From: Eledone cirrhosa
Taxonomy: Eukaryota
Assembly: GCA_964016885.1 (NCBI GenBank)
Contig: OZ024742.1
Coordinates: 248,372,001 to 248,436,000 of the forward strand
Reading direction: 5' to 3'
DNA length: 64,000 nucleotides
In this document: positions 4,658 through 63,400 of the stretch, in pieces
How positions within the stretch are numbered: position 1 is the stretch's first letter
Layout: each line of letters opens with the position of its first letter
Program-made: the position numbers and the translations under genes
Notes under the pieces: generated by a model
Seen by the model: the letters and a program-made list of their open reading frames with translations, nothing else
What the model was told of the DNA's origin: nothing
Database searches by the model: none

Positions 4658-5709
4658 GAAGTTATATTTAATTTGTTGGGATACAACAAACAAATATTTT
4701 TATAACTGATATAAAGCACTCAACTAGAATTTGGAGTAAAAATACAATATATTAACAAATGGAAACTATATTTATAAAACCATATTTATTTCATTATACA
4801 TATTTTTCTTTTTCTTTTTTCCCTATTCCAACGGCGTATTTTAAATGTACGGGATTTAAACCTCTCCGACACTAATTTGCATAATAGACCAATAATAAAA
4901 TTAGTAACCCCACTATCCGGGAGCTTCCAACCGACATGGTCGCATTCTTTAAGGGTATGTCAATATTTGTTTATAAAACTGATCTATATTATATTTTATC
5001 TGATGAAAGCGCACCATAATTTGCTTTGGTGTCCTTGAGATATGTATAATGAAATAAATATGGTTTTATAAATATAGTTTCCATTTCTTAATATACTGTA
5101 TATATATATATGTATATATATGTATGTATGTATGCATAAAGTAAGTGTGAGTGTTTGTTTGTATCTATGTGTGATTTCTCCAAGGACTTTGCTAGAAATT
5201 GAATGAAATAATCTTTTCCGCAATAACCGTTTTCATAACCCTAAATACACATACAAGCGCACATAGATTCACACACGTACACACATATAGTACATATATA
5301 TATATATAACTAGAAACATGCCAGACTCACACATATTCACACACACACACACACTCACACACAGAGCGTGAGATTGACTCGAATTATATATATAAAACAA
5401 GTATATTTTACCAATTTAATCTATATTTACAAAAATTAGAGGACGCCTTCCCAATGTATGTGTATTTACAGAATCTGAATAGAACCTGTATTTACATAAG
5501 GCTCTGGTCTCGTTTGCCTTCTTTTTGTTCCTGGTTATATATAACAATAAATGTGTTGTGTTCTATATCTCGACTTAAACGTTCCCCCTTAACTGCTCGT
5601 CTTGTGTACAAGTTAGAATGGATATTGAAGAATAATGGTTGTTGTTTATGATACTGCGCATGCACAGGTACTCCCAAGCAATAAGGTTCACAGCTTAGAC
5701 ATGTGTGCG

Positions 5710-5980: not shown

Positions 5981-6955
<975 letters not shown>

Positions 6956-16465: not shown

Positions 16466-16668
16466 AAAGTTCTATTTAAATTGTTGGGATACAACAAGCA
16501 AATATTTTTATAACTGATATAAAGCACTCGACAAGTATTTGGAGTAGATATACGATATTAACAAATGGAAATAAATATAGTTTCCATTTGTTAATATCGT
16601 ATATATATATATATATAAAATAAAGTAAAATAAATAACTCACATGTTTAAAATTTAGCTTCGTTTATT

Positions 16669-16723: not shown

Positions 16724-16848
16724 CCGAATTAGTGTGGTATAGGCAAGTACATATGTTGTTGAGGTGTATAATTTTGTCAATACTCTGATATGCCCAGTTC
16801 CTGGTTGGGTTGTTATTTCATTGAGGAACTGGAATCATATGATTCCAG

Positions 16849-31774: not shown

Positions 31775-34600
31775 TATTATTCTTGGCTGGCGTATATACA
31801 GTAGCTAGAGAGACATGTCGAGACGGGTGAGCTTGACCAAGGCGTCAGTTCCAGCATTATGGATTTCTTCCAGGACGCCGGGAAAATGTCTGAGTGTGTA
31901 ATCCCGAACATAACCCCATATGTTTGGTCATGGTCTCCACAGTCATACACTGGGCTCTCTTTAATTCTCCATCGATGTGGATGATAGGGTGTCCTGGCCT
32001 GTGCTGTGTCGATCCGATTAAGGGACAAACATTACGTTCTGGGCAGGTCAAAACCGTCTGTTTTAGATGAGGGATCCTGGATGAGGTATTAGTTGCCAAT
32101 TTGGACACAAACCATGATCTTCGCCACTCTTCCTTCATGTCAAATCTATTGTCTGGAGGGATTTTCGTTGATTCCCAGAAAGGTGTGCGTGTTTTCAGGT
32201 GCATGTTGGGAAGCTGTTTCAGGTCTTCATGGATGGGATAGTCAGGATTAGACTTGGTAAGAAGTGTTGTTTCGAGGATCATCTCGTGATGGCGCAAGTG
32301 GGAAGGTTGTATTTGTGAAATGTTAAGCAGCCATTGAGTTGTTGCATATTTCCATGTGCCACATATTATTCTCATTGCCGAGCTGACGATAGTGACAACA
32401 TGCTGGCCAGACTGGTGAACACTACTCTGTAATTGAGTATACAAATGCTAATCACGCAGTTCGGAGTTTTTGTGTATTAGAACCCCAGCTGTTTCATGCC
32501 AACTCGCGGATGATACTAATCCTAGTCGTGAGCTTTCCAGCAACCCTTATTAGATCCTCTCGGTAGGCGAGGCCTCGATCCAATGTTTCATCAACACAAT
32601 TGGTGTGTGTTTCATTCTTGACAGATCAACCTAAGTAAGGGACCTGATGTTCCGTCCTAGCTTGTCTGTTGCTGAGATTGAGGGCTGTTACGGTGGGCTT
32701 GCTTGGGTTGTGCCGAAGGTACAGTAGGAGTAGTAGTCCTCCATCTTCTTCATGTCTTCTGTAAGTGTAGATTTGAGCTTGTCAAAGTCAGTAGATTAGG
32801 TAGCCAAGGCAAGGTCATTTTCATATAAAAATGTTCTCCAAGTTGTCCGGGGCATATCATTTACGTAGATGTTAAAGAGAATGGTGCCATGACGGAACCA
32901 TGGGGAGGGCCATCATACATGATTCTGGTTGAACGTGGTTAACTTCCTACTGACACCGTGAATCTTCCCTTATTGAGTTGGATGTTCACAGTTGCCTGGC
33001 ATTTGATGGTACGTTTGGCCTTCAGAAGGAGGCGACATTTCCATACGATATCGTACGCAGAAGAGAGGTCCACTAGAGCAGCCATTTTATTGAGACCTCA
33101 TTGGTCGCCAGCCATGATGAAAATAATGAGGCCGAGGACTTGATAAGTGTAATTCCTTAGTCGTCTGAGCCTGCTTGGTCCTTAAGCAGGGTTGGTTATT
33201 CTAAAGGGGCAGTCCTGACCAAGAGGAGCCATTAAAATAGCTTGCAGGAAGTACAGAGGAGAGAAATAGGCCGGTAGCTTGCTTGATCATCTGCAGGTTT
33301 CCCGTGTTTCAGTTTGGCGATGACCTTCCCTTTTCTCCAGATTTTTGGGATAATTGCAGTTGCGTGGATGACTGTGAAGAGAGAAACAAGTCAGTCTCGG
33401 CAACTGGACCGAGGTTCTTAATGAATTCAGGATAGATGTCGTTGATTCCTGCTCCCTTGCCAGCTTTGGTTGATGAAAACCCAGTATTTATCTTACTTAT
33501 GGTGTAATGTTTAGCAAGTGAGGAACTCTTTTCTGAGGATGACTAAGCTCCTGAGAGATTCTCTCAGACTTCTTGGCGTGCCTCTTTGTTTGAAGGTACT
33601 TTGGAGTTGAGAAGTAGATGTGATGCAACTGCATTTTCAGTTACGTTTTCTGGCTGGTGCTGAACGGGAGATGCTTCACTAAGCCGTCTAAGGCTATGCT
33701 CTCTTTCTAGAGGGAGTGGAATCCAACTCTTCCACCATTTCCTGCTAGCGAGTCCTTTTAGCTGAGTCAAGGAAGTCTAAGAGTTCCGTAGTTAGGTACG
33801 GTTCACCTGAGGCATCACAGTTCTTGAGAAGCTTTTCAGACTCTGGGATCAAGAAAAGGGTGTAAGATTGACGGAAACCTCGGTGGATGTGGTTCTTGGC
33901 AGCATTCTTCATAATTTTAGAAAAAGCAGTATAATTCTTGCGAACAGTTTCCAAGTTGATGATTTGTTCATCTATCTCTGAGCTGAAAGATTCCCAATCA
34001 GCCTTTCTGAAGTACAAGCGTAGTAGTATCTTGGATTGTGTAACAGGAATCTCTATACGGATGTGTATCGCATCTGATCTCTGTTGGGTCTGGGGGAAGT
34101 GGGGTAATATATTGCGAGAAGCCTGAACAGGACGTCCATTGATTGATTTGGAGAGGTGGAAGAGGTCTAGGTTATAACCCGTCTTCCAGTGACTAGAATG
34201 GAATGTGCCAGGTTGTTTGGAATAATTGAGAATATAGCGGCCACTAACTGAAGCCCACGTCTCCAACTGTTCCCCAGACTCTTTGTTTCTCGCATAGACC
34301 CATTAGGAGTGATGGCTGTTGAAGTCACCAGCTTGCAGGCCCGGGTGGAATTGGACTTTCACAGCAGGAGAGGGTCAAGTACATCTCCGAGGTCTGTAAA
34401 GTTAGTGATCATAAATATGTCATCCCTGCAGGATTCCTCAAGGGCAGAGGATTCTATAATTGCATATCTGATTTATGTGGCAACGCAGTATTTTGAGTGG
34501 GTAATGAAGACATGTGCTTGTACCCATAGACACTTGACATAGCGTAGAGTTTTCCCAATGTGTCAGTAAGGCTGCTCCTTAAAAGGGTCCTTATGGTAAT
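31775..34600 (-). mobile_element. Decayed Vingi/Ingi-type LINE (single EN-RT ORF, many stops and frameshifts)
   Basis: ORF fragments KQPGTFHSSHWKTGYNLDL, FRKADWESF, AAKNHIHRGFRQSY, SWGSNTQKLRT, MRIICGT..TQWL..PSHLR match this group's typical motifs. Confidence 0.75.
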
Positions 34601-34629
34601 GACACATAGTGATTTATATTAAAAAAAGT

Positions 34630-35268
34630 TAATTGTACAAGGTGTGTACATGAAGAGCATATATTGAGGAATGGGTGAACCACGTGAATTTTGCCACGAA
34701 GACAGGTATATAATTATAGGCATGATATAATAGGAAAGGTGATTCACTGGCGTTTATGCAAACTAAATAATTTACCTTAATCTGAGAAGTGGTTTGAGCA
34801 TAAGCCAGAATCGGTGATAGAAAACAATCAAATGAAGGTGCTATGGGATTTCAGGATACAGACACACAAGAAATTAGAACTCAATAGGCCCGACCTGGTG
34901 GTTTTCGAAAAGGAAAAAAGGTTGTGCCTGATTGTATATGTAGCCTGTCTCTTTGACACAAGAGTACAAGAAAATGATAAGGAGTAAATTAACCAATACC
35001 ATGATGCAAAGTGGGAGTCAAAAAAGGATTTGGGACTGTCATGAGATCAAGGTCGTCAGATTGTCATAGGAGCACTCGGTACTATCGCAAAGAGTTTTCA
35101 AGGATGGTTAAAGAACATTAGACAACCTTTTTGGAACGCTTCAAAAGGCATGCTTGCTGGGAACAGCAAGAATCCTCCGATACATCCTGAATATCTGAGG
35201 CTGCAGGTAGCGGCATGATGCTCATTTGAACAAACTTTCCAGTTGAATAACATCCGTGACTGAGACTC

Positions 35269-35270
<2 letters not shown>
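34630..35270 (+). mobile_element. 3' fragment of an R4/Dong-type element (restriction-like endonuclease domain), decayed
   Basis: Translates as RHDIIGKVIHWRLCK..KWFEHKPESVIENNQMKVLWDFRIQTHKKLELNRPDLVV..IGALGTI, then ends in (TAA)n. Confidence 0.85.
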
Positions 35271-35310
<40 letters not shown>

Positions 35311-35564
35311 TAATAATAATGTTTTCTTTATTAACCACAAGGGTTTACATAAAGTAGACATTAAGGACAGTACAGGACAATACAGGATGGTACAAATGGG
35401 CATTTCTGCGTGTAAAAAAAACAGAGAATGAAATAAAATAACAAAGAAAAATTCCCCAATAGGGGGGAGACTTCCGAGGGACATTTGTGGAGAAAGCCCA
35501 TTAAAAGACCACAGTGGCCCTGGCCACCAGGGCAAGTGCCCTCTCCCAGTTTTCCACCTTTAAT

Positions 35565-38500
35565 TTACAGACACATACTCAGAGAAGGCCCATTCATTCG
35601 GGCCATACTTCCTTCTCTCACCCATCTTTCAACAAAATGCTGGGAAGAGAGCACTTCCCTCTCTACCCTGATTTTCCTTTTCAGATGAAATTTGAAAAAG
35701 TTAATCAGGGCATCACCGAAGAGGTAAGTGCTCGTCTTCAGCCCTTTCAAACGTGTCCACCATACTATCTCTTTCGCCATGGCCACCAGACAGATAAAAA
35801 CTGCCTGCCCTTCCCGGCTAAAGGAAGGGGGCGGGGCAATCCTCACGATGGACTCAGCTGATAGCTGGATCCGTCCTACACGTGACAGCAGGTGTTCAAC
35901 ATAAACCCACAAGTCAGCAATGCTCGGACACTGGACGAGTGCGTGCAGGACGGTTTCGTCGACCTGCGCGCATCTCGGACATGCCCGGTTGACGGCACCT
36001 CCATGCCTGTAGAGTTTATCCCGAACTGGCAAAGCTCCTCGGTAGCACTGCCAGGCCAGGGATTTCTGGAAATTGTCCATAGGCCCCGGCCCGAAAGTCC
36101 TTCCGAAGAGATTGGCTAGTTGATTTTCGTCGACGCCTAGAGTTTCTCCAAGTACGTCGTCGCTCTTCCCCTCCACTAATCCCCTATAGAACGCCAAGGA
36201 GGAGTTTCCACCGATCACATTGCCCGATTGGTCGAGGGCTGTGAGCGCCTGAAGACATTCCAGTCTCCAAGCGCTCCCTCTCGGTCTTCGCTTGACCCAG
36301 GACTGCAGCTCCGTCAAGGAGACGAGCTGGGGAAAAACGCGTCAAGCAAACGGCGACCACACCTGATCACCGTCGAGGAAGAGGTGGAGATGTCGTAGCC
36401 TGAGCGCGTGTCTGCGCATCATCAGCTACGGCATGCCCAGCCCTCCACGTAGCGGGTGTTGACAGCAGATGGACCGCCTGACCATCGGAGCGCGTCCTTT
36501 CCACAAGAAGCGAAACAGCAAACGCTCCAGCGCAGTCAGGCGGGGCTTAGGACAAGGTACGACGGTCAGGCGATAGTAGATGACGGATGCGATGTACGCA
36601 TTCGCCACCTCCGCTCGACCTTTCAGGGATAGCTTCCTCTCGGCCCATTTCTGGGTGAGAGAAGCCACCCTGCTCGTCACCTCGTCCAAGTTTTTGTCCG
36701 TCTGGAGGTCTGGACCGAATCAGACCCCTAGTAATTTAACCGGTCCGTCCGTCCAGCGCCCGACGACGCTGTTGGACGGCATGGACCTGCCTCTCCAGGT
36801 GCCGAGCTGCAGGCCCACTGACTTTTCCTGGTTGATCATTGCTCCTGTCACCGCTTCGTATTCTCTTAGTGTAGTGCCGATCGCCTCGATGTGTTTGGCG
36901 TTCGACACCACTACGGTGACATCGTCGGCATATGCTGACACGGATCTTCCGCATCCTAGTTCGCGCGGGACCCCCCTCAACGTCTCCAGTTTGTGCAGTA
37001 ATGGCTCGAGAGTCAATACGTACAATAGGGACGAGAGGGGACATCCTTGGCGGACCGAGCGCAAGATGTTGAACGGTTCCGAAAGGTGACCGTTCACTCT
37101 CACTACAGAGCAGATGTCGCTGTGCATGGCAGCGATCCAGCCTCTGAAGACGGGCCCAAAGCCAGCCGCCCTCAGGACTGCCGCTAGGTAACGATGGTCG
37201 ACCCTATCGAAGGCTTTCGATTGATCTAAATTGATCAAAGACCCACCCTTGCCAGGTTCCCTAGCTACCCTCTCTACGATGTATCGCATGAGGTGGAGGT
37301 TGTCGTGGATGGATCTGTCGGGAATGGCGCATGTCTGTGCCTCTCCCACCAGACCACCAACGACAAGCGCCAACCTCTTTGCTAGCACCTTGGCCAAAAT
37401 CTTGAACTCTGTGTTTAGCAGAGTTATGGGCCTAAAATTATCTATGTTATCCCCCTTGTTCGGATCCTTTCTCAGCAGCGCCACCGCTCCTCGGCTCACA
37501 GAGCTGGGAATTCTCCCGTTCTGTTGCCAGTTGCAGTAGACGTCCGCCAAGAGGCCTCCGAACAAGTTTGGCATTTGTACGTAAAGTTCATAGGGCAGAC
37601 CATCCAAACCAGGCGATTTACCCCTTGTGCAACTAGTCATTGCATCCCGTACTTCAGCGGTTGTTATCGGCTTTTCGCAACACTCCGCCTCAGTGGCCGA
37701 AAGCCGCGGCAGTCCGTCGAGGTAGACACTAAAGTCCATCCCTCGATCCGTCCCGCCACTGCCCCCGAACAGTTGAGCGAAGTGTCGCTGAAAAGCTTCA
37801 CACACTTGCCCGGGATCGAATAGCATGCGCCCGTCGTGGTCCACCAAAGACCGGATCGTGGCTTTGTTGCCATGACGCGCCTCCGCCACTCGGGCCCATT
37901 GAACGGCTTTCGTCCCCTCGTGTTTGAGTGCACGCACCCTAGCTCTGACAACGCAGCCTTCGTACTTTGCATTGAAGAATTGGTCAAGGGCCAATTTCGC
38001 CGCAAGTACGTCGGTAGCGATGCCTTTGCTAAGCGCCTCATCTAATTTTCTAACTAGTTCTCCCTCTGCTCCATTTTTCTCTATTGCTAAAGTCTTACTA
38101 AACCTAATGGACTCTATTCTAATTGCTCTTTTCAGAGCAAACCACCACTTGTTGTTGACGATGGCCCCCGTCAACGCCCGCTTAACTAGTTCGCTAATCC
38201 GGTCTCTGTAGGCCTTGCGCGCTGGTAAGGACGCGTTTAGCTTCCAGTAGCCGGGTCCTCGCCTATGAAGCCTATCTAAGTCAAGCACACAGATCACGAA
38301 TTTGTGGTCCGTGTAGCTGACTATCTTGAATTGTGGACAGCCTATGCTAGACCTATCTATTTCCCTACAAAATACTCTATCTAGATATGATCTGGATGAC
38401 CCTATGCGATTTGTCCAAGTCCACATTGGTACATTCGGGAAATCCATTCGGTACCTGTCAGACAGTTCAAAACGTCTGAGCAGGTTGGTGAGGGTCTTGC

Positions 38501-38984
38501 ACCCTCCTTCCCTATCCACTAATCCCACACAATCCCAGCGTGCATCTAAGATCCCGTTCCAGTCGCCCACTAACACTAAAGAGCGGGACGTTCCAAGAAA
38601 GGTCTCCAGACGCCGGAAGAAATCAGGCCGCCCTGCTCCTGTCGGGGTATAGACGGCCACTAACCTGAAAGCTTGCCCGTCTCCGCTGGTCACGTCCAGC
38701 ACCACCACCTTACCTTCTGGGTCCAGGAAGATGGCCCGTATGGTAAGATCCAAACCTCTCCGAAAAAGCACAGCAACTCCACCCCCCGATCCCGGACGGC
38801 TGGGAGATGCGTACACATCGTAGCGGCCGAAGATCGGTGCGAAAGCCTGTGCTTCGGAGATTCTGGTCTCGCTGATGGCCACTACATCTATGTTTAGTGA
38901 CCTGAGGTCGTTGAGCAGGTGGCCCTGCTTCCATGATGACTCCAAGCCACGCGCATTTATGCTGCCTATTCTGAGTGAGGTCAT
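35565..38984 (-). pseudogene. LINE ORF2: APE endonuclease, reverse transcriptase, C-terminal zinc finger; three in-frame stops
   Basis: EN motifs SINARGL, ISET, GDWN, YLDRVF, TDHK. RT motifs KSPGLDG, FRPITLLN, LDQSKAFDRVDH, VRQGCPLS, YADD. C-terminal CPRC..ETVLHALVQC. The three ORF pieces share one frame, with stops near 36720, 36426 and 36343. Confidence 0.92.
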
Positions 38985-39018
38985 GTTGAAAAGGAGTGGA
39001 AAAGATGGGAAAGACCAC

Positions 39019-40724
39019 TTACCTTACTTCTCGTAGGGGAAGGACGGTTTTTCCATCCTTTTCACTGCTTGTGGCCTCCTCAGGAAGGATGTCCTTATAA
39101 ATCCTCCTGGAGAGTGCTTGTCGGAAGTCTCCGATGTCTTTGGGGAATTTTTGTTTTAGTGTCATGTACGTTTTCTGTGTGATGCGAGTGATTTGTATGT
39201 GTGGAGGTGGTGTGAATTTTGGGGTTGTTGTGTAGTCTTTTTCTGTGATGCTGGTGTTGTGTTGGATGTAGTGTAATAATTGCTTGTTGTTCAAATTTAA
39301 TGCTGTGTAGTGTGTATCGTTTTGGTTGTTTTGTTTTGTTTGCGTTTGTTGTGGGTTTGTTTCTGTTTCGCATTTTGGTGACTTTTGTGGTGTAGGTGAT
39401 GGTGGTGCTGGGGTTAATGATGGTGAGGGTGTTGGTGTTTGGGTTGATGGGGTTGGTGATGCTGGTGTGGATGGTGGCATATATGTCCTAACTTTTTTGT
39501 TTTTTAATTTATTTGTTTCCCTCTGTATTTGGTTTTTGGAGGGGGAAGGAAGAGAATTATTTCTTTTTTGGTTTCTTTTTTTTTTTCCGGATATCGTTTC
39601 CCACTCCTCGTCGTCACAATCTGTCTCCAGTTGTGATAGGCCGGGGAGTGGAAAATCCTCCACAGCCGTTAGTTTTGGTTGTGGTGTGGTGGATGGTGTA
39701 GGCGCTGGTGCTAGTTCTGAAGCGTTGGGTGGTGGTGGTGTCGGTTTTGCTGGTGGTGGTAGTGGTGTTGGTTTTGCTACTTTTGCTGGGGTTGTTGCTG
39801 TTATAGTTGCTTCTGTTGTTGCTACTACAGTTGTTGCTGCCATCTCTGCTACTGGTGGTGTTGATGGTTGTGTCACTGGGGTGGGTAGGAGAGGTGGCCT
39901 CAACCTTTTAGCCTGAGGGCAGAAAGCCCTTAGGTGGGTTCCTTCACCACAAACGACACACCTAGGTCTTCTGCCCTCGACAATTACCGTGAGGTGGCTG
40001 CCGTCAGTGAGGTCTATTACCTCTGGGATCTCCTCAATGCTTTTTTGGTCCGCTTGGATCAGGAGCTCCATCCCAGATCCGGACCAGTTTTCCTGCTTTT
40101 CTTTTGCTATTGTTATTATTTTCGTGTTGGCCTCGATGCCGGCGAGGACAGCCGCTATTAGCCAGGGAATTTCGATGGCCGGTGGAACGTGGGTCACCCT
40201 GATCTTTACGAGTCTCTGGCCACAATAGCTTGGGACGAGTGTGAAATCGTCACTTTTTAATGGGGCCATGGAGTGTTCTCTAGCCTCCTCTGGTGTTTCA
40301 AAGAACACATCCACGGTTCCATACTTTTGCCCACGTCTGATGTGGGTTTTTCTTGCCCACACATGTCCCAAAGCTTTTTGGATTTTGGACTCGGATGCCC
40401 GTTCCACTCGGCGCGATTTTACATTTATTGTTCTATACGACACGGTGCATAGGCGCCGATGCTCCATTTTATTAGGTTGGGGGGGGGGGGGGTGAGGCTG
40501 ATCCTGTACCCATCTTTCTTTACCATTTGTTTGGCATTTTCTAAATCCTCCTGAGTTACCGTACAAGCTTCGAATTGTTTTGCTACTCTGGCGAAACTGA
40601 GGGTCGGTTTTATAATGTCATTGTTGTTGTTGTTGCTATCGTTAATATTAATTTTAGTTCCAGTTGTGGCGGTGGTGACGTCAGTCGTCTTTGGTGGGGA
40701 AGAGTCCATTTTGCTTGATTTCAT
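39019..40724 (-). pseudogene. LINE ORF1 (gag-like, CCHC knuckle), apparently frameshifted
   Basis: CVVCGEGTHLRAFC knuckle followed by a Pro/Thr-rich region. ORFs 40425..40724 and 39019..40566 overlap in different frames across a G homopolymer near 40480-40492. Confidence 0.8.
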
Positions 40725-44627: not shown

Positions 44628-44683
<56 letters not shown>

Positions 44684-44919
44684 AAGAATCAAAGAACTGT
44701 TCAAAACATTATTGTGCTTACAGCTGTTTCCTCCAAACCGAGGTTTGGATGCTTCGGAGCAATTTATTAATGCATGGACAGTTATATGACCTCCTCTTCA
44801 TTTTGAATATGTTTGAATATGTTATATGACCTCCTCTTCTGTTTGAATATGTTTGAATATGTATCGGTATGCCTCTCGGCTGAAGAGGAGGTCATATAAC
44901 TGTCCATGCATTAATAAAT

Positions 44920-44966
44920 TGCTCCGAAGAATCCAAACCTCGGTTTGGAGGAAACAGCTGTAAGCA
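44920..44966 (+). ncRNA. Hammerhead variant with CCGAAGA core; inverted copy at 44715-44761
   Basis: TGCT-CCGAAGA-a tccaaacc tc ggtttgga g-GAAA-cagctg-TA^-AGCA. Confidence 0.72.
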
Positions 44967-45167
44967 CAATAATGTTTTGAACAGTTCTTTGATTCTTATA
45001 TTTCATATAACTGCTCTGTAAATCATCTGATGTTTTTACATTGAGCTACTTAACTTACTGGTAATAAGGTAGTAATGCATTACTGCCTACCACTATTTAG
45101 GGTGTGTGTAAAATACTTATAACTGCATAAGATTTTGTATTTACATAACCATAAATGGTATAACTAA

Positions 45168-47925: not shown

Positions 47926-48109
47926 CGAGGGAATTGTGCTAAGGAACCAGGTGGACCATAACGCACCAGAGTACTCAATACTTTGGCTAGTAGAGTGGGT
48001 GAAAATGTATGACCCTGACGGCAGAGCTCAAGCCGTTTCGACGGCTATTTCACGACTCAAATAGCCGTTGAAAAGGCTTGAGCTCTGCCGTCGGGGTCAT
48101 ACCTTTTCC

Positions 48110-50077: not shown

Positions 50078-50222
50078 TTTGAGTTTATGTTGGTTGTATA
50101 CCAACACCTCAGTATGCAGGCTGGAGCACTCGACGAAATGCGCAGGTTGGTTTGGTTACTCTGGAGTAGTGTAAAATAAAGTTAAATAAAATTCAAATGA
50201 TTAAAATTTAGCTTCGTTTATT

Positions 50223-50277
50223 ACTGCTATATATATTTCAGTGACAGCCATCTTTGGCTGTGACCTCTTCAGGCAGT
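50223..50277 (-). ncRNA. Hammerhead, same family as 16669 (left palindrome arm)
   Basis: Reverse complement of 50330-50384. Confidence 0.85.
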
Positions 50278-50329
50278 TTGAATTAGTATGGTATAGACAA
50301 ATACATATGTCTATACCATACTAATTCAA

Positions 50330-50384
50330 ACTGCCTGAAGAGGTCACAGCCAAAGATGGCTGTCACTGAAATATATATAGCAGT
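50330..50384 (+). ncRNA. Hammerhead, same family as 16669 (right palindrome arm)
   Basis: ACTGC-CTGAAGA-ggtcacagcc aaagat ggctgtcact-GAAA-tatata-TA^-GCAGT. Confidence 0.85.
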
Positions 50385-51477
50385 AATAAACGAAGCTAAA
50401 TTTTAATCATTTGACTTTTATTTAACTATATATATATATATATATATATACGGAGAGAGAGAGTTTTATTGATATATATTTATATTTTGATATATATATA
50501 CACATATATATATATTAGGAAAATATATATATTAGGAAAATCTGTTCAGGCGAACATTAATTCAAATGCATACATATCTCTAACTCTGTGTGTATGTGTG
50601 ATGGAGGGTGGTGCCGCCATTGTGTGTCTGTCTCAGTTTTGTTGAGGACTAACACATACGGAAAACGCTATAAATGACAAAACATTGGTTCTAGAAATAC
50701 TTCTTATGCTCAGGCAATTGTGTCTTCCAGGAATTGGATTTCTGTAAATAGTTACAATATTACAATAAAGACGCAGAGACACTGGCATTCTCATACACAC
50801 ATATACACACTCACTCGCATTAACATATACACACATATATATACACAGACAAATTATACACGCATATATTGTGTCGTTAATTATGAAATGTGTAGACATT
50901 TGTAGGAAAAAGAGAAATTTCTACAAATTTCATATTTGATGACCCAATATATTTATACATATATACGTATGAATGTATATACGCATAAACAAAAACACGC
51001 ATATGTATGTTTGTGTGTGTGTGAGTGTGTGGGTGTGTTTGTGTGTGTGCCTGCGTGTTCAAGCATATTAATTTAATTTATTTCGCTTGAGGCAAAAAGG
51101 TTTGAAAATTTCCATTATTGCTACAGCAGCTATTTCGTAGCCAGCCTTATATGCTTGAAAACGTACAATAATAACATGTGAAAATGGCAAAGTGATTACA
51201 TAAGATGTTAGACACCTTTGGTTTTTAGTCTGGGTATTTGACTGATTTTCCGCTTGATGTATAAAACTATGTCGTGCTATGTGCCTGAGAAGGGTAATCA
51301 CTCTCCAGTTTCGGAATTTTCTGATGGCATCTCCATGGGATTGGCACCTAGAAAGTTTCCCTCAAAAGTTTGTGCATGATTGTTTGTCTAAGACTAGCAG
51401 CCGCCTATGCACACTAGTCTGGTAGCAGTGACTTCGGAACTCATTTCTACAGCTGAGTAAACTGGAGCAACATCAAA

Positions 51478-62795: not shown

Positions 62796-62972
62796 CCGTT
62801 GGTGATGTGGTGGTAGTAGCAGCCAAAATAGTAGCAGTTGGGTTGTCGCCTTTCGCTCTCTGACCCCCCCCCCATATATATATATAAGAAGAAATTGAAA
62901 GATGGTTAGAAAAGTTCCATGTATTTTATTATGCTCACAAGTGTCTTTTTTAAGCTTCATATCATGTCTCCC

Positions 62973-63043
62973 TATTTTATCTGATGAGAACGCAAATATC
63001 GTCCCTGGATGATATTTGTTTTTGAAATGCGCATAATAAAATA
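62973..63043 (+). ncRNA. Type I hammerhead ribozyme motif, intact core
   Basis: TATTTTAT-CTGATGA-[gaacgcaaatatcgtcc ct ggatgatatttgttttt]-GAAA-tgcgca-TA^-ATAAAATA. 8-bp stem I and palindromic stem III. Confidence 0.88.
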
Positions 63044-63400
63044 CATGGAACTTTTCTAACCATCTTTTAATTTCTTCTTATATATACTCCAGTCCAATAA
63101 ACTGTTGAGTGCTACTTATCCGATATTTGCATTGCTTTATTGTGCTACAATAAAACTCACCTCCGACACACACAAATATATATATATAACAAAGGAATTG
63201 TGGTAAGGAACCAAATGGACCATAACGCACCAGAGTACTCAATACTTAGGGTATTAGAGTGGGAAATAGGAAAACGTATGACCCCGACGGCAGAGCTCAA
63301 TGTATATATATATATATATATATATACATTATCACTGATGAGGGACTCATTTTATAACATGTTATCCATGTGCAACCATGCAGTATTCTGCTCCCCATTT

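Follow-up and report, generated by a model that had tools for sequence, protein, structure and literature searches.

A probable two-armed insertion of a hammerhead-bearing Penelope-like element 3' end in the genome of Eledone cirrhosa, and the spread of arm ends across its family

The segment 62875-63190 of the Eledone cirrhosa DNA studied here very probably represents one insertion of the 3' end of a hammerhead-bearing Penelope-like element (PLE) into a (TA)n microsatellite, with the two arms likely primed for reverse transcription from both strands of the cut target. Coordinates refer to the window, that is, the whole 64-kb stretch that was analysed, and positions in the repeated unit are given as r numbers, with r1 at 62938. 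The same two-armed layout, with variable inner ends, is found at about half of the insertions of this family, and its main traits, an inverted 5'-truncated arm at TATATA/(TA)n and a one-sided tail, are already described for PLEs. Because arms stop anywhere across the family, the ribozyme is not a dedicated switch point, and at 62875-63190 it is likely not the place where the reverse transcriptase (RT) turned.

The locus opens with the left target microsatellite (62864-62886), which reads as a C run followed by (AT)n and runs into the first TATATA of the inverted arm. This 5'-truncated arm, on the minus strand at 62879-62934, covers the unit from r149 down to r94 (window 63086-63031), as found by repeat search and by BLAST to a natural reference copy; it starts at the internal TATATA, carries no tail and aligns by BLAST over r95-149 with an overlap of 2. 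The direct copy, on the plus strand at 62932-63168, extends from r-5 to about r230, as judged from a comparison of copies and BLAST, and lacks about 22 nt of the short-form 5' end (ATATGTTGTTTAGACACTACCT). The internal TATATA of the direct copy (63081-63086, plus strand; r144-149) is where all tail-less arms have their 3' end, and is the putative inner start site of the RT. It is followed on the plus strand by the tail (63087-63168), a 3' extension of about 80 nt which is present on one arm only and has AATAAA at 63149-54, 10-14 nt before its end. The right target microsatellite, (CA)n(TA)n, occupies 63169-63190.

The arms meet at a TGC microhomology (62932-62934), which supplies both the innermost bases of the inverted arm (r96-r94) and the 5'-most bases of the direct copy (r-5 to r-3). 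This junction was defined against copies that have ...CCTTGCTCA ahead of CAAGTG and, checked against 30 other copies and by coordinates, reads TTATTA-TGC-TCACAAG. With the TGC shared by both copies, the inverted arm thus ends 2-5 nt upstream of the predicted hammerhead cleavage site. An initial annotation, made from the sequence alone, had described 62875-62936 as the reverse complement of 63029-63088, with the right segment beginning at hammerhead stem III. The inverted repeat is real, with borders at 62879-62937 and 63028-63086 in the repeat search (59 nt, 97% complementary, 90 nt apart), and the right arm does begin, at 63028, with the predicted helix III (63028-34).

Outside the window, 4.9 kb downstream, lies a 411-nt duplicate of the right part of the locus (L005; 248438328-248441485) that spans the junction, the direct copy, the tail and the next element, and has its left edge inside the inverted arm. 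We considered L005 as an independent insertion with an identical junction and rejected this reading because the 411 nt in common include the downstream flank, which makes it a local duplicate.

A search of the assembly (3.0 Gb) with 62938-63095 as the query returned at least 1212 candidate copies of the unit genome-wide; 40 of these, when scored, gave 61 matches, the best of them at 97-100% identity, and the family is young. Comparison of 30 loci showed that the unit reaches up to 27 nt 5' of 62938 (ATATGTTGTTTAGACACTACCTTGCTCA) and that the sequence following TATATA belongs to the element, being a conserved tail of about 80 nt which ends 10-14 nt past AATAAA. Most copies are a non-coding short form of 177-254 nt with a discrete 5' end at r-27. 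Two 3' ends occur within pairs, r149 on one arm and about r226 on the other. The pattern expected of a tail-less end, (TA)4 joined to the reverse complement of r122-149, had 337 matches in the genome against 0 for the reversed control. The flanks of the compared loci are mostly (TA)n, and the family shows an insertion bias for (TA)n targets. The tail was also sought as a copy of the element 5' end in three 8-kb loci, where its sequence was not found elsewhere; the elements in these loci are 5'-truncated.

The unit is the 3' end of a longer element, into which 25 of 128 mapped arms continue, and many tail-less copies extend at least 1.5 kb upstream. At locus L126, a 598-aa open reading frame (ORF; L126:5051-6847) ends about 1.1 kb before the 3' end of the unit and displays, by eye, a YRDD motif, a Cys-rich linker (CNCPNRTKCPLNNYC) and a GIY-YIG-like block (LVYECKV...YFGST). 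The longer element, with its RT/GIY-YIG-like ORF, is therefore taken to be Penelope-like, and probably an EN+ PLE with a Neptune/Nematis-type linker, an assignment that is well supported by the architecture but only indirectly by domains. Pfam detected no RT or GIY-YIG domain in the L126 ORF, which is degenerate at its N-terminus, and nothing relevant in four of its homologues. Many of its 33 homologues carry PF26215, and the neighbouring clusters in the ESM atlas include HTH_animal, RVT_1 and GIY-YIG, with RVT_1 and GIY-YIG in 12-41% of members. The L126 copy is degenerate or 5'-truncated. A 141-aa zf-RVT match in L125 was discarded, as it lies outside the aligned element. The L126 ORF begins with a low-complexity (IY)n stretch, a translated TA/CA repeat, and no N-terminal part of an RT was found upstream of it.

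A candidate minimal type-I hammerhead was identified by hand on the plus strand at 62973-63043, from a script motif scan, sequence reading and folding. Its predicted helix I, of 8 bp, pairs TATTTTAT (62973-80) with ATAAAATA (63036-43); the core box CTGATGAG (= CUGAUGAG) occupies 62981-88, the long helix II of 13 bp 62989-63023, GAAA, by sequence reading, 63024-27, and helix III 63028-34, where T-GCGC-A would form 2 bp with the palindromic loop GCGC, the TGCGCA as a whole being palindromic. Cleavage is predicted after A63035. The type-I core CUGANGA...GAAA is present as CTGATGAG and GAAA, as are the A15.1-U16.1 pair (A63027/T63034) and the cleavage nucleotide H17 (A63035). The centroid fold contains the 8-bp helix I and the long helix II (z = -2.0; 8 of 200 shuffles fold equally well). 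Rfam at gathering thresholds yielded 0 matches in the window, and so no hammerhead. At E<=10, none of the 150 listed of 414 matches in the whole window was a hammerhead, those listed being microsatellite look-alikes of miRNA families, and none of 5 matches on the 171 nt at 62930-63100. Because Rfam makes no hammerhead call, the label rests on motif and fold. Intact hammerhead cores were counted in 100 of 256 hits among the copies, a rough figure, since helix II is self-complementary and so gives hits on both strands.

Minimal type-I hammerheads of metazoan PLEs, as characterized by Cervera and de la Pena 2014 (PMC4209133), have a helix II of 7-8 bp with an extra 5' base, while their helix III is short and palindromic; the authors also note motifs that occur in pairs, on opposite strands and separated by 100-700 bp. 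The motif at 62973-63043 resembles this description in its CUGAUGA...GAAA core, long helix II with an extra 5' base and very short helix III with the palindromic GCGC loop, which points to dimeric action of the predicted hammerhead. It differs from the description in its 13-bp helix II and in that the predicted motif escapes the Rfam models.

Pairing of arms was assessed on arms picked regardless of their inner ends, from the first 100 places of the 337 pattern matches and from three fresh pattern sets. Arms and partners were mapped by BLAST onto one natural copy (L024), so located to within a few nt. From 172 unique arms, 32 with less than 90% identity and unreliable ends and 12 from a biased first search were dropped, which left 128. 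Of these, 25 run on into the long element, 32 reach the short-form 5' end (r-32 to -20) and stop there, and 71 are truncated, with ends that are scattered. In these unbiased, pattern-ascertained sets, 70 of the 128 arms have a head-to-head partner no more than 60 nt away. Likewise, BLAST found an adjacent inverted copy at 17 of the 30 best-matching loci, each starting at r149 by (TA)n and lacking the tail. Among the 70 pairs, 8 have two full-length arms, 17 have exactly one, and 45 consist of two truncated arms; the overlaps at the junctions mostly fall between -5 and +7 nt. Tail-less copies that stand alone show the same spread of 5' truncations.

This layout is close to that of known PLE insertions, which the account of insertion structure in Craig 2021 (PMC8557442, citing Evgen'ev and Arkhipova 2005 and Arkhipova 2006) presents as 5'-truncated and often preceded by an inverted 5'-truncated copy, with a tail of 30-40 bp at one end only, a preference for (TA)n in some clades and hammerheads in the pseudo-LTRs (pLTRs). 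The locus shares with that account the inverted 5'-truncated copy directly upstream, the one-sided tail, the (TA)n target and the terminal-repeat hammerhead, and the L126 ORF recalls the Neptune/Nematis clades described there in its Cys-rich linker ahead of a GIY-YIG-like block. There are differences from the same account: the tail is about 80 nt long, most copies are the non-coding short form with its discrete 5' end at r-27, and the direct pLTR tandem is absent at 62875-63190.

A biochemical parallel is provided by PAc, a Poseidon element of Anolis (Frangieh 2024, PMC11167929). The purified protein cleaves and extends both DNA strands in vitro, the RT starts at two internal sites with the interval between them forming the tail, RNAs with a dead hammerhead insert just as well, and none of the RNA reads had an end at the cleavage site. 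The two alternative 3' ends of the unit fit two RT start sites with the tail between them, and the two-armed copies fit cleavage and extension of both strands, for which a hammerhead is not needed. However, the PAc start sites lack homology to the cut DNA, whereas the inner site TATATA matches (TA)n; moreover, PAc belongs to another PLE clade and host and is known from biochemistry, the present element from genomic copies. For the latter, priming from both strands would thus be carried over by analogy from another clade.

On this basis, we propose that the GIY-YIG endonuclease of the element would nick the TA repeat on both strands. Of the resulting 3' ends, one could then prime a cDNA at the outer start site, at the tail end just past AATAAA, and the other at the inner site, UAUAUA, which would be able to pair with the TA target. 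Each cDNA would stop at the RNA 5' end (r-27) or earlier, and the two cDNA 3' ends would be joined via microhomology or a short snap-back. At 62875-63190, the arm from the inner site would have come to its end 2-5 nt upstream of where the hammerhead is predicted to cleave.

Two other known modes of retrotransposition were rejected for this locus. L1 twin priming, reportedly described by Ostertag and Kazazian in 2001, is said to yield inverted and direct segments that cover different parts of one RNA. It is similar in that an inverted segment joined by microhomology results from a second priming event on the opposite DNA strand, but at 62875-63190 both arms cover r94-r149 instead of different adjoining parts of the RNA. 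Copying one 3' region into two arms calls for two templates, two passes or a snap-back. Animal non-LTR retrozymes, with which the names of Cervera and de la Pena (2020) are associated, are said to be non-coding hammerhead units that use PLE machinery, and are depicted as such in a recent preprint (Li, Clavereau and Pollet 2026). Retrozyme units are arranged in tandem and give circular RNA. The unit at 62875-63190 differs from them in being single, not tandem, and the 3' end of a coding PLE; it continues into the ORF-bearing element in 25 of 128 copies.

The alternative that survives best, although improbable as the origin of this locus, is that only one cDNA was primed and that, after its stop, it folded back and primed its own second strand, which would become the inverted arm. 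At the junction, the TGC could allow a cDNA that ended at r-5 to pair with r94-96. Across the family, inner ends lie within 15 nt of each other in 19 of the 70 pairs (for example, 112/111, 22/22, 56/56 and -28/-28), and pairs with both arms full length number 8 against about 3.8 expected (Fisher p=0.015), so that full length in one arm is not entirely independent of full length in the other. This excess and the near-symmetric pairs suggest that some pairs likely arose by snap-back of one cDNA, not by two primings, and the pair at 48001-48108, symmetric around an 8-nt loop, also fits. Nevertheless, the inner ends of the two arms at 62875-63190 fall about 100 nt apart on the unit, the inverted arm has no tail, although one would be expected if it had been copied from the first cDNA, and 51 of the 70 pairs are not symmetric. 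Priming from both cut strands remains the preferred reading of the locus.

The window contains further fold-backs, which were found by repeat search, dust-filtered self-BLAST having missed most of them. Six of the seven others listed in the initial annotation are indeed head-to-head pairs. The seventh, 60230-81/60371-422, is a real inverted repeat (45/52), but (TA)n stands between its arms, and its geometry therefore differs from that of the other fold-backs. An additional, full-length head-to-head pair was found at 50176-50431 (arms 50176-302/50305-431, 127 nt, 98%, 2 nt apart) with a hammerhead motif in each arm.

The fold-back at 4737-5106 (arms 4737-4803/5040-5106, 67 nt, 94%) belongs to a very abundant family, and its short arm, tailed on the left side, extends as far as helix III of a hammerhead that has decayed (CTGATGAA ... 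GAGA). A 22-nt motif of this family has 17,686 exact matches in the genome (8818 + 8868), which makes this hammerhead-bearing family one of the major repeats of the genome. In its first 100 places, counted by eye, there are 18 close neighbour pairs, namely 13 head-to-head, 4 tandem and 1 back-to-back. The short head-to-head pair at 16545-16607 (arms 16545-71/16581-607, 27 nt, 96%) is of the same family and too short to extend into the hammerhead. Together with the 70 of 128 paired arms of the unit family, the preponderance of head-to-head pairs upholds the earlier proposal of an insertion mode shared across families, which is a known PLE signature and is far from random.

A related, small family (18 matches, with the hammerhead mostly read through) accounts for the fold-back at 173-438 (arms 173-230/381-438, 58 nt, 83%), whose inverted arm reaches GAAA and from there skips to the direct copy's palindromic 5' terminus. 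At loci L004 and L010, and at 173-260 of the window, inverted arms keep the 3' part and the last 10-20 nt or so of the 5' terminus, with the middle skipped. These arms look as if the enzyme had jumped along or between templates. The fold-back at 44672-45009 (arms 44672-800/44881-45009, 129 nt, 99%) has a right arm that starts 1 nt into a CTGAAGAG box.

A family with a 483-nt unit is represented at 6140-6851 (arms 6657-6741/6767-6851, 85 nt, 99%). A tailed minus-strand arm about 1.3 units long, with a canonical hammerhead at 6247-6336, occupies 6140-6766, and a tail-less plus-strand arm, 6767-6851, stops 5 nt past the cleavage site. At the loci compared (L221-L250 and L329-L368), 5 of 47 arms are at least 995 nt long and exceed one unit, as in retrozymes, and L230 is almost exactly one unit; multi-unit arms are seen in this family only. 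From sequence, this family looks retrozyme-like, with a template that may be tandem, circular or reached by end-to-end jumping.

The near-symmetric head-to-head pair at 48001-48108 (arms 48001-50/48059-108, 50 nt, 92%, 8-nt loop) represents another family, also found at 63190-63300 and at L251-L280. Each of its arms ends some 10 nt upstream of GAAAC, where short forms of the family usually have their boundary, and this boundary looks like a discrete short-form 5' end. The boundary lies inside helix II, so that most copies keep only the 3' half of the motif; they begin inside helix II, and the box is absent altogether. Long copies have UUGACAAG in place of the hammerhead CUGAUGAG, with positions 3 and 8, which are paired in active hammerheads, changed together to U and A.

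The initial annotation had further proposed the ribozyme hairpin as a switch point and suggested mapping the breakpoints against the hammerhead. When this was done in the unit family, no preference emerged, and a general role of the hairpin as switch point is not supported. Truncated ends of tail-less arms spread from r-18 to r123, with 23 of 46 inside the whole hammerhead (r36-106) against 24.0 expected, 5 of 46 at r87-99 (GAAA to the cleavage site) against 4.4, and only 2 arms ending exactly at the cleavage site, r99; a chi-square test of uniformity gave p=0.17. A candidate hot spot of tail-less arms at r79-90 (helix II base/GAAA; 5/30 in the first sample, p=0.12) was rejected, as it was not replicated on fresh loci (1/16 and 4/23, not significant). 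The main hot spot, r-27, lies 63 nt upstream of the ribozyme, and small recurrent stops occur at r5-10 and r44-48.

These data bear on the decidedly improbable reading that the hammerhead, through its helix II hairpin or self-cleavage, is a specific stop or template-switch point of the RT to which breakpoints are tied. The initial annotation had several arms stop in or near stem II/GAAA, and in the window the inner ends of five arms (62934, about 385, 5040, 6767 and 48059) lie 3-33 nt upstream of a predicted cleavage site. The impression is largely a base-rate effect, however: the hammerhead makes up about half of the span where a short arm can end, so that an arm ending in or near it is what chance predicts. 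Tailed partner arms of the unit family start at r79-90 in 8 of 55 cases against 2.7 expected (p=0.005, for a window chosen post hoc), which suggests that RNA structure near helix II may have some influence, and single snap-backs centred on helix II exist, for example at L192. Against this stand the absence of a preference among the tail-less arms, the position of the strongest hot spot at r-27, the 4737 family, in which only 3 of 26 arms end inside the hammerhead, and the in vitro insertion of hammerhead-dead RNAs (Frangieh 2024, PMC11167929).

The residual support for a role of the ribozyme is family-specific. In the 483-nt-unit family, 5 of 27 tailed arms start within -2 to +5 nt of the predicted cleavage site (p=3e-4 versus local density), although only 1 of 42 tail-less arms ends in that interval. 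In the 48001 family, a single 13-nt stretch immediately 5' of the helix II 3' strand accounts for 18 of 30 arm ends, as well as for 14 of 16 partner ends. It is conceivable, though doubtful, that in these two families the ribozyme does set arm ends. If so, the tailed arms at the cleavage site would be the genomic footprint of self-cleaved RNA serving as a template for PLE RT in vivo, in contrast to the in vitro result with PAc, and the fixed boundary inside helix II of the 48001 family would split the ribozyme, leaving most copies with its 3' half. Maps of arm ends would then report, family by family, on germ-line hammerhead activity, and family-specific pile-ups would offer a cheap genomic read-out of hammerhead cleavage before reverse transcription.

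The useful result for the unit family is negative: in 128 unbiased arms, breakpoints show no preference for the hammerhead, in agreement with the dispensability of the ribozyme for insertion in vitro. The genome holds many textbook PLE insertions, and annotators should expect head-to-head structures with a one-sided tail in TA repeats.

Long perfect palindromes are unstable, and a full symmetric palindrome might have formed first and later lost its centre through DNA-level processing. This account, which fits the short junction microhomology and the existence of full symmetric pairs (8 of 70; 50176-50431 in the window), is highly improbable because both arms should be trimmed, yet 17 of the 70 pairs keep exactly one normal 5' end, while solo tail-less copies are truncated with the same spread although partnerless, and L004 and L010 skip the middle but retain their 5' termini in a manner resembling template jumps.

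In at least three families, full-length 5' termini start with CATATG or directly beside it (50295-50312, 16752-16760 and about 255-262 in the window, and unit-family loci), so that full head-to-head pairs are joined at a short palindrome (for example, CAACATATGTTG). The ends of solo short forms coincide with this CATATG point, and the agreement suggests that the RNA has a fixed 5' end, which may be a transcription start.

The window as a whole is rich in AT and in microsatellites, except that the GC content is 0.44-0.52 at 32000-40000 against about 0.30 elsewhere; this rise could reflect a gene or another element. Just beyond the locus (window 63330-63400), a stray CTGATGAG at 63336-43 lies between two (TA)n runs without a GAAA partner and probably represents a piece of a further hammerhead element within this microsatellite nest.
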